32,000 bases of DNA. It comes from Phycisphaerae bacterium (lineage in GTDB: Bacteria; Planctomycetota; Phycisphaerae; Sedimentisphaerales; Anaerobacaceae). The position numbers were made by a program, and so were the translations under genes. Every line of letters begins with the position of its first letter. Positions within the stretch are counted from its first letter, which is position 1. This document shows, one piece after another, positions 11,771-13,359 of this stretch. The notes below the pieces were generated by a model. That model saw only the letters and a program-made list of their open reading frames with translations. It was not told where the DNA came from and did no database searches. The DNA is taken from NCBI GenBank assembly GCA_016782865.1, contig JADHXR010000043.1, positions 14,504 through 46,503 on the forward strand, in the 5' to 3' direction.

Positions 11771-11993
11771 TAAGGCTCTGTCGGAAAACTCGATCTGGCT
11801 TCGAGCGGCTTATTTTCTTTAACGGTCTCATGCTGCTGACGCAGCTACTGTCGGATAAAGGCAGCCGCTGTTGTCCGCCTGGCCGCATCCGGCTGCATCG
11901 ACGATAAAACCGATATCGCCTGCTTCGCCGTCTTTGCCAGGCGAAAAAACGCTCGCTCTCGCACCCGACGACGGAGTCTTCCGACAGAGCCTA
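11771..11993. mobile_element. Possible MITE-like element: about 20-bp terminal inverted repeats (18/20) enclosing about 180 bp, abutting the hgcB stop codon
   Basis: Left AAGGCTCTGTCGGAAAACTC (11772-11791); right arm GAGTCTTCCGACAGAGCCTA (11974-11993), reverse complement TAGGCTCTGTCGGAAGACTC; no convincing internal CDS. Confidence 0.4.
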
Positions 11994-12284
11994 GCCGCAG
12001 CACGAATTCGAACAGTCACAATCCGGTTCTGTCCCCCGCAAGAATCCGTTGATGACGGCTTGGGCACAGCCGACCCCCGCTCCGACTGAAATCGCGTCCG
12101 CGGGGCAATTATTTCGGCAGGCCCCGCATTCCATGCAGCTATCGGGGTCAACCAGCCGCGCCCTTCTGTCCTCAATCGCAAAAACGCCGTGCGGACAAAC
12201 CTCCGCGCATCTTTGACAACCTATGCATTTCTCGACGTCAAGCTCCAGCGTAACGACGTTTTTCAGATATTGGAGTTTTCCCAT
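11991..12284 (-). CDS. hgcB: HgcB, 2[4Fe-4S] ferredoxin of the mercury methylation pair
   Basis: MGKLQYLKNVVTLELDVEKCIGCQRCAEVCPHGVFAIEDRRARLVDPDSCMECGACRNNCPADAISVGAGVGCA...CDCSNSCCG: CMECGAC motif and terminal Cys-rich tail typical of HgcB; directly downstream of hgcA. Confidence 0.93.
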   Translation of the reverse strand: MGKLQYLKNVVTLELDVEKCIGCQRCAEVCPHGVFAIEDRRARLVDPDSCMECGACRNNCPADAISVGAGVGCAQAVINGFLRGTEPDCDCSNSCCG

Positions 12285-12309
12285 AACAGTCCGACTCTCG
12301 TTTGTTGTC

Positions 12310-13359
12310 CTATACAAAACGCCCTGCCAGCCATAGCCCAGTACCCGCCACGGCACAGATTATCTGTGCAGGCACTGCGATTCTCATCTCCCGCTTTACT
12401 CCCGACAGCGAAGTGTATGTAGAAGCCCCGGTAAAGTTCATCACAACAAAACTCGTCAAAGCCGGTATCATCAGAAACCACGCGAGAATGTCCAGACGAT
12501 CGTTCCAGGAATTCCACAACCCCCGGCTCTGGAGACCCAATATTATGGATATTGCCAGCCCAATCCACATCCCCTTGGCGGAGAACGCCCGCCCGGGCAG
12601 CCAGGGCAGCAGGGCGGGCCCCAACATGCCGGCTGCCAGGTAGCTCGCCAACAGGATCAGGACACTTCTGATACCATCAGAGGCGACGAGCTTGCCTGAG
12701 TATCCTTCTCGACTGAGACCGGCAAGTACCAGGAAACATGCCGCCGCGCACAAAACATGTTTGCCCCAGCCGATTAGTTCCACCGGTATCAGCACGATTC
12801 GATCGGCGAGCGGAAAATCGACTCGCCGCATCTGTTCGGTCGCCTTCATACCTCCGTCGAGAAAGGCCGGCAGGTCCTTTGCCCGCACCGGACCGTACAG
12901 CACCTGAAAGCCGCTTTGTTGCTTCACCACATGTGCGCTGACGCCCGTTGCGCCAAGCTGGGGGACTATGAGCTTCTTGTGCGCAACAATCTCGCCCAAT
13001 CCGACGTTCTCGATACGACTGACCAGCTCTTCGGTTCCGAATGTCCCTTTGCCCGCGGCACACCAGACGTTGATGCCCTTGGTATCGAGCACGAGTATCC
13101 AGCCATCGCGGCCGGTCAATCCGCTCCTCAGACGGTCGAAGCTCATCTTGTAATTGGCCGTGACAAAAACGGGAGTTTCGGCGGTGGGCTCACCCACGCC
13201 GTAAAGTCCGGGCTCGACCGAGTATTTCATCCGCCCGATAGCCCAGCGCACCTTCCAACTGCCAAGCCTGTCGGCCCAGTCCAGTTCCGTGGCGACTCTT
13301 GGAATCTGTCGCCCGTTGTGTGTTATGATTGAAATCGCCCGCACGCTGTCAAAAGCCAT
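12310..13359 (-). CDS. hgcA: HgcA, corrinoid iron-sulfur-protein-like mercury methylation protein with C-terminal TM domain
   Basis: IPRVATELDWADRLGSWKVRWAIGRMKYSVEPGLYGVGEPT...WILVLDTKGINVWCAAGKGTFGTEELV (cap-helix Cys at residue 100); LPQLGATGVSAHVVKQQSGFQVLYGPVRAKDLPAFL; C-terminal TM helices ending NFTGASTYTSLSGVKREM. Confidence 0.95.
   Translation of the reverse strand: MAFDSVRAISIITHNGRQIPRVATELDWADRLGSWKVRWAIGRMKYSVEPGLYGVGEPTAETPVFVTANYKMSFDRLRSGLTGRDGWILVLDTKGINVWCAAGKGTFGTEELVSRIENVGLGEIVAHKKLIVPQLGATGVSAHVVKQQSGFQVLYGPVRAKDLPAFLDGGMKATEQMRRVDFPLADRIVLIPVELIGWGKHVLCAAACFLVLAGLSREGYSGKLVASDGIRSVLILLASYLAAGMLGPALLPWLPGRAFSAKGMWIGLAISIILGLQSRGLWNSWNDRLDILAWFLMIPALTSFVVMNFTGASTYTSLSGVKREMRIAVPAQIICAVAGTGLWLAGRFV

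Follow-up and report, generated by a model that had tools for sequence, protein, structure and literature searches.

A mis-annotated hgcAB gene pair, the putative mercury-methylation system, in a Phycisphaerae genome

Introduction

A tandem gene pair in a Phycisphaerae (Planctomycetota) genome raises the question as to whether it encodes part of the acetyl-CoA pathway, as the database name of one of its products has it, or the two-gene HgcAB system for the methylation of mercury. The pair lies in a 32,000-nucleotide stretch of DNA (positions 14,504 to 46,503 of contig JADHXR010000043.1, assembly GCA_016782865.1), referred to here as the window. GenBank already has both exact proteins, from a Phycisphaerae metagenome-assembled genome (MAG), the first (MBL7186722.1, HgcA) under the name "acetyl-CoA synthase subunit gamma" and the second (MBL7186721.1, HgcB) as "4Fe-4S binding protein". 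An initial annotation of the window had called the pair hgcAB, which improves on the deposited names. We conclude that the locus almost certainly carries a true HgcAB system of two genes. The data show directly that the proteins belong to this family, that all diagnostic residues are in place, how the domains and the operon are arranged, and from which lineage the host comes; that HgcA would be loaded with its cofactor, expressed and able to methylate Hg in this organism is what we infer. The yardsticks applied were high-stringency motifs (PMC10087281) and the residues defined by mutagenesis (PMC7305189, PMC11588087), with HgcAB of ND132 (Pseudodesulfovibrio mercurii / Desulfovibrio desulfuricans) as the experimentally characterised reference.

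Results

Family membership and diagnostic residues

HgcA matches the NCBIfam equivalog model NF040863 with 452.6 bits (E = 7e-136, model positions 1-324 of 325, cut-off 275 bits), and HgcB matches the equivalog NF040864 with 130 bits (E = 2.2e-38, model positions 1-93 of 93, cut-off 99 bits). Both scores are well above the trusted cut-offs of these hidden Markov models (HMMs), one of the checks by which the initial annotation had proposed to test its call. Pfam is less specific: the sole match in HgcA is PF03599 (CdhD; residues 46-164, E = 1.7e-12), and the matches in HgcB are to generic Fer4 families only. A phmmer search of HgcA against the PDB finds 2h9a / 4c1n at E = 2e-11, with alignments that cover residues ~318-439 of those chains.

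The cap-helix motif NVWCAAGK, which the initial annotation had already read at this place, was located by script with its cysteine at position 100 (Table 1). It agrees with the pattern N[V/I]WC[A/S][A/G/S]GK, conserved cysteine included, and is one of six high-stringency cap motifs (PMC10087281). Cys100 corresponds to the predicted Co-thiolate ligand Cys93 in P. mercurii ND132. An alignment of 81 HgcA sequences shows no variation at N97, V98, W99, C100 and A102, and the cap motif is present in all of the related loci (80/80), with an adjacent hgcB in 64 of the 80. The flanking strings GLYGVGEPTAETPVFVTANYK and GPVRAKDLPAFL listed by the initial annotation are present in HgcA as well; a third string, given there as LPQLGATG, was misread and is VPQLGATG.

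In HgcB, both cluster motifs have the form CxxCxxCxxxCP, and their eight cysteines are found in every one of 65 aligned HgcB sequences. The CMECGAC string and the Cys-rich tail noted at the outset (C89, C91, C95 and C96) are both there, CMECGA(C) being a form of the C(M/I)ECGA signature used as the ferredoxin criterion for HgcB (PMC10087281). A cysteine at position 73 is shared by 62 of 65 relatives, and in ND132 the C73A substitution in HgcB abolishes methylation (PMC7305189). The C-terminus reads ...SCCG. Depending on the position, tail cysteines are kept in 52-60 of 65 relatives, with CC in 55/65 tails, and the terminal cysteine pair is required for activity in ND132 (PMC7305189). Since the tail cysteines are conserved in relatives, the Cys-rich tail is the norm for the family and no peculiarity of this protein. 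With PMC7305189 and PMC11588087 as the reference, every residue that mutagenesis has defined as necessary for methylating Hg is intact and conserved.

Predicted structure of HgcA

An AlphaFold2 model of HgcA, made cofactor-free from the 81-sequence alignment (mean predicted local distance difference test score, pLDDT, 84.7; predicted template modelling score 0.72), has an alpha/beta domain at its N-terminus and then five long helices (residues 184-212, 222-253, 259-277, 285-308 and 318-348), with which five Kyte-Doolittle hydrophobic segments in the C-terminus agree. The top Foldseek match in the PDB is 9a0b_A (E = 1.7e-21, 46% identity, 330 columns), which is the deposited ND132 HgcAB model from the entry "Structure determination of the HgcAB complex". 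The next matches are corrinoid iron-sulfur protein (CFeSP) large subunits, and these cover the N-terminal domain only, at ~27% identity and a root-mean-square deviation of ~3.3 Å (3.4 Å over 127 columns for 2h9a_A). A cap cysteine, a C-terminus with several transmembrane segments and an adjacent ferredoxin, the combination that the initial annotation had regarded as diagnostic, were all found together.

Gene arrangement and host lineage

The two genes lie in tandem on the same strand, hgcB 25 nt downstream of hgcA, and are probably co-transcribed; short hgcA-hgcB spacers are seen in relatives too. An open reading frame (ORF) map puts the hgcA ATG at 13359 and its stop at 12310-12312, and the hgcB ATG at 12284 and its stop at 11991-11993, which bears out the positions, strand and spacer of the initial annotation nearly to the base. 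An alternative hgcA start, TTG at 13374, lies five codons upstream; the closest relatives also have 349 residues. A promoter-like site is predicted upstream of hgcA (Table 1), and its TGnGATAAT and upstream hexamer are kept in the related loci L082, L002 and L084. Further upstream is flgE (13513-15198), and the promoter-like site falls inside the 153-nt flgE-hgcA spacer. A search for an arsR-type regulator showed that no ORF fits between hgcAB and its neighbours flgE and ahbB; no arsR-type gene adjoins hgcAB, and there is no Mer-like product among the larger ORFs of the window. The GC content around hgcAB (0.57) equals that of the flanks and gives no compositional sign of recent transfer. Since Rfam has no match in the whole window at gathering thresholds or in 11400-13700 at E <= 1, hgcAB has neither a cobalamin riboswitch nor any further known RNA nearby.

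Table 1 Coordinates of the hgcAB genes, their diagnostic elements and the associated non-coding sites. Positions are those of the window unless a related locus is named.
Feature	Position	Strand	Description	Evidence
hgcA	12310-13359	minus	349 aa plus stop; membrane-anchored corrinoid methyltransferase	NF040863 equivalog, GenBank MBL7186722.1
CFeSP-like corrinoid-binding domain of HgcA	12868-13224	minus		Pfam PF03599 CdhD, PDB sequence and fold matches
Cap-helix motif NVWCAAGK	13048-13071	minus	residues 97-104, Cys100	script
HgcA transmembrane domain	12316-12810	minus	five helices, residues ~184-348	AlphaFold2 + hydropathy
hgcA-hgcB spacer	12285-12309	minus	25 nt	sequence
hgcB	11991-12284	minus	97 aa plus stop; 2x[4Fe-4S] ferredoxin	NF040864 equivalog, GenBank MBL7186721.1
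First [4Fe-4S] motif of HgcB, CIGCQRCAEVCP	12192-12227	minus	residues 20-31	script
Second [4Fe-4S] motif of HgcB, CMECGACRNNCP	12102-12137	minus	residues 50-61, contains C(M/I)ECGA signature	script
HgcB Cys73	12066-12068	minus	exactly 12 residues past second cluster motif (Pro61)	script
HgcB C-terminal tail CDCSNSCC	11997-12020	minus	C89, C91, C95, C96	script
Promoter-like site TTGGCT-17-GATAAT	13407-13435	minus	extended -10 TG; 48 nt upstream of hgcA ATG	consensus scan, prediction
Conserved hgcB-ahbB spacer	11548-11770; L002 7390-7615; L004 9345-9566; L082 325-557; L083 295-516; L084 1607-1832	minus (window)

The closest HgcA proteins (95-60% identity) come from Planctomycetota and Phycisphaerae MAGs, and NCBI names several relatives at 60-85% identity "mercury methylation corrinoid protein HgcA". 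Unlike these, the exact pair in the window is deposited under generic or wrong names. Among one-per-species genomes, the best loci belong to a binned MAG (91%) and to Phycisphaerae bacterium SG8_4 (84%). In a neighbour-joining tree of 81 HgcA sequences, which has no paralog outgroup, the window HgcA falls within a Phycisphaerae/Sedimentisphaerales/Planctomycetota clade. The contrast of HMM scores, 452.6 bits for HgcA vs 197 for the fused-like and 74 for the CFeSP model, argues in the same way as the tree. Compared with Planctomycetota/Phycisphaerae MAGs (e.g. SG8_4, LJTR01000184.1), HgcA is 84-95% and HgcB 85-92% identical, and the gene order flgE-hgcA-hgcB-ahbB is shared. Synteny with Phycisphaerae SG8_4 and relatives extends to the flanking genes, which are 82-97% identical, and the assignment of the host therefore does not depend on HgcA alone. 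As to the initial suggestion of a possibly under-sampled lineage, the lineage is indeed uncultured, but the proteins are in GenBank, dozens of Planctomycetota relatives exist, and Phycisphaerae are published putative methylators: in 2020 they were counted among the common HgcAB-encoding microbes, and in 2023 they were put forward as major potential methylators for the anoxic Black Sea.

Neighbouring genes and non-coding DNA

A tetrapyrrole cluster flanks hgcAB (6396-11547, minus; 63-1911, plus). Downstream of hgcB are ahbB (siroheme decarboxylase beta, above cut-off), a gene for a ccsB/HemX-like membrane protein, hemA (above cut-off) and two radical S-adenosylmethionine (SAM) genes, whose best matches, AhbD with 379 bits (cut-off 500) and AhbC/NirJ1 with 529 bits (cut-off 650), are both below cut-off. 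At the start of the window are hemD, truncated by the window edge, and hemL. As listed, the ahbB and ccsB-like ORFs overlap by ~90 nt, which makes a ccsB-like start further downstream probable. A sigma-54-dependent two-component system (2967-6145, minus) comes directly downstream of this operon on the same strand, made up of a PAS/HisKA histidine kinase with a PilS-like domain of six transmembrane helices and an NtrC-type response regulator. The order hgcA-hgcB-ahbB-ccsB-like-hemA followed by the two radical-SAM genes is kept in L004, with an HgcA only 70% identical, and in part in L002 and L082-L085; the linkage of hgcAB to heme genes is absent from L003 and from other, more distant loci. Because it is restricted to close relatives (L002, L004, L082-L085), this linkage is lineage synteny and not a general association.

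Leaving aside the insertion described below, the non-coding spacer between hgcB and ahbB (~220 nt, about 11548-11770) is strongly conserved throughout the clade, also in the member whose HgcA has no more than 70% identity. It holds a promoter-like TTGCAA-17-TAGCAT and the invariant blocks TTGTAGGGG and TCCTAATCCGCT, and could be a leader or regulatory region of the heme operon. The spacer has no Rfam match. RNAalifold on five spacer sequences gives 0/31 compensatory pairs and a covariation term of +0.68, and the single-sequence fold has a z-score of -1.5, so that an RNA structure is unsupported in this very small sample. An exact-pattern scan for the leader, confined to JGI metagenome contigs, returned four true loci, all of which belong to this clade; one is identical to L002. 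A further hit, L081 1425-1483 (JACKQG010010503.1), lies inside a coding region of an AT-rich unrelated contig and was discarded as a chance match.

Directly after hgcB, and sharing 2 nt with its stop codon, is a stretch of ~220 nt (11773-11992) whose edges are 19-nt inverted repeats, 95% complementary, and which folds as a single long hairpin (-106.7 kcal/mol, z = -6.4). This palindromic insertion sets the window apart from the other Phycisphaerae MAGs: it is missing from all relatives that share the hgcB-ahbB spacer (L002, L004, L082, L083, L084), including a relative with 94% HgcA identity. An exact search with the terminal-repeat pattern found no other copies in JGI metagenome contigs, in the 80 loci or in the rest of the window. 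It looks like a single-copy palindromic insertion or one resembling a miniature inverted-repeat transposable element, and its hairpin may act as a terminator for hgcAB.

Elsewhere in the window, a 468-aa ORF (22401-23807, minus) with no Pfam or NCBIfam match lies in the region of lowest GC (0.49 at 23-24 kb). A 739-aa ORF (23957-26176, minus), also with no matches, overlaps a confident plus-strand GH127 beta-L-arabinofuranosidase (25349-27775) as well as a 435-aa plus-strand ORF (24023-25330), and is probably a spurious shadow ORF.

Discussion

How the two proteins would work together can be sketched from studies of the ND132 enzyme (PMC11588087, PMC7305189), in which the methyl donor of HgcAB turned out to be SAM and not methyltetrahydrofolate (methyl-THF), as had long been assumed (PMC11588087). 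By analogy, the two [4Fe-4S] clusters of HgcB would feed low-potential electrons to the cobalamin of HgcA, reducing it to Co(I). SAM would then methylate Co(I) to methyl-Co(III), with the thiolate of the cap residue Cys100 as the predicted lower axial ligand, and the methyl group would move to a Hg(II) bis-thiolate to give CH3Hg+. The flexible tail of HgcB (C89, C91, C95, C96), together with Cys73, probably carries Hg(II) in and CH3Hg+ out. Every residue demanded by this scheme is present here.

The likeness to ND132 extends to the overall design, with two genes, a corrinoid-binding domain followed by five transmembrane helices and a cap motif with the essential cysteine in HgcA, and two CxxCxxCxxxCP motifs, Cys73 and a C-terminal cysteine pair in HgcB. 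There are also differences. The host belongs to a Planctomycetota lineage of fermenter type and is not a sulfate reducer, HgcB has four tail cysteines vs two in ND132, and hgcAB is bordered by flgE upstream and ahbB downstream, with no adjoining arsR-type gene.

Several points weigh against reading the locus as a working mercury-methylation system. No member of the Planctomycetota has experimentally validated Hg methylation, and the group remains "putative"; validated methylation is confined to Desulfobacterota, Firmicutes and methanogens. HgcA is only ~46% identical to its validated counterpart in ND132, and the tree that places the window HgcA is outgroup-free. The cap region of HgcA (residues 92-108, 13036-13086) is coil in the apo AlphaFold2 model, with a pLDDT of ~73-77 vs values above 90 in the rest of the domain. 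The cap helix may form only with corrinoid bound, and because the region is coil in the apo model, the Cys-on geometry is one that we infer rather than see. Finally, to our knowledge the native physiological role of HgcAB is not known for any organism.

In a different reading, the pair is true HgcAB, but methylating Hg is not its part in this host: it could be silent, poorly expressed or corrinoid-starved, or it could natively catalyse a different methyl transfer, with Hg methylation only as a side reaction. No planctomycete has yet been assayed for Hg methylation, and in this clade hgcAB holds a conserved place beside a tetrapyrrole/heme operon and not beside metal-resistance genes. In ND132, native expression is extremely low, at ~0.0004% of protein (PMC11588087). 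Set against this are the intact and conserved residues on which Hg methylation depends according to mutagenesis, the conserved promoter-like site upstream of hgcA, and the fact that isolates having a cap-helix HgcA with these motifs can methylate (PMC10087281). We regard this reading as rather unlikely, though it keeps a real chance, and it overlaps the reading of the locus as a mercury-methylating HgcAB without being exclusive of it.

The GenBank name would make HgcA a CFeSP subunit in the acetyl-CoA (Wood-Ljungdahl) pathway instead, a reading that deserves practically no credence. The name "acetyl-CoA synthase subunit gamma" is attached in GenBank and at JGI to the exact protein and several relatives, Pfam reports CdhD, and the nearest experimentally solved structures are CFeSP large subunits (AcsC/CdhE; 2h9a, 4c1n, 4djd), with which HgcA does share a homologous Rossmann-like corrinoid domain (27-28% identity over ~127 columns). 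Yet the CFeSP model scores 73.7 bits against a cut-off of 306, aligning only HgcA residues 46-169 with model positions 322-445 of 450, a result that agrees with the initial view that the protein is no CdhD/CFeSP paralog. HgcA has neither the N-terminal [4Fe-4S] domain nor the TIM barrel of CFeSP and possesses instead a membrane domain of five helices, which CFeSP lacks; CFeSP has no cysteine at the cap position and takes its methyl group from methyl-THF vs SAM for HgcAB, and there are no acs/cdh genes within the window. Domain architecture and curated cut-offs together rule out a CFeSP identity, and the deposited name is an outdated automatic annotation.

Just as improbable is that the pair belongs with the fused "HgcAB-like" proteins or other HgcA-like paralogs, for which cultured carriers show no Hg methylation: the partial matches to NF043039 (197.2 bits for HgcA, 60.9 bits for HgcB) are under its cut-off of 285 bits and far under the scores of the true HgcA and HgcB models, and the two proteins come from separate ORFs, parted by a stop codon and a 25-nt spacer. 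Scores and ORFs together rule this identity out, leaving it a vanishingly small chance.

The identification of the locus as hgcAB is a routine one: the family is well known, its presence in the lineage had been established before, and the new member was merely mis-annotated. It adds nothing conceptually, since hgcAB in Phycisphaerae/Planctomycetota is already catalogued and published. It does correct a misleading public annotation. JGI uses the same gamma-subunit name (of acetyl-CoA decarbonylase/synthase) for many relatives, and HgcA is systematically mis-annotated as a Wood-Ljungdahl protein; because the deposited names are generic or wrong, surveys based on names miss this pair as hgcAB and could miscount it as a Wood-Ljungdahl gene. 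The MAG is now flagged as a putative methylmercury producer, which is of modest practical value. A more speculative idea is that the conserved leader couples the expression or function of HgcAB to tetrapyrrole metabolism, either through corrinoid supply or through a native role of HgcAB in that pathway. We consider such coupling a long shot, but if true, it would offer, for the first time, a hint from gene context as to what HgcAB does physiologically.

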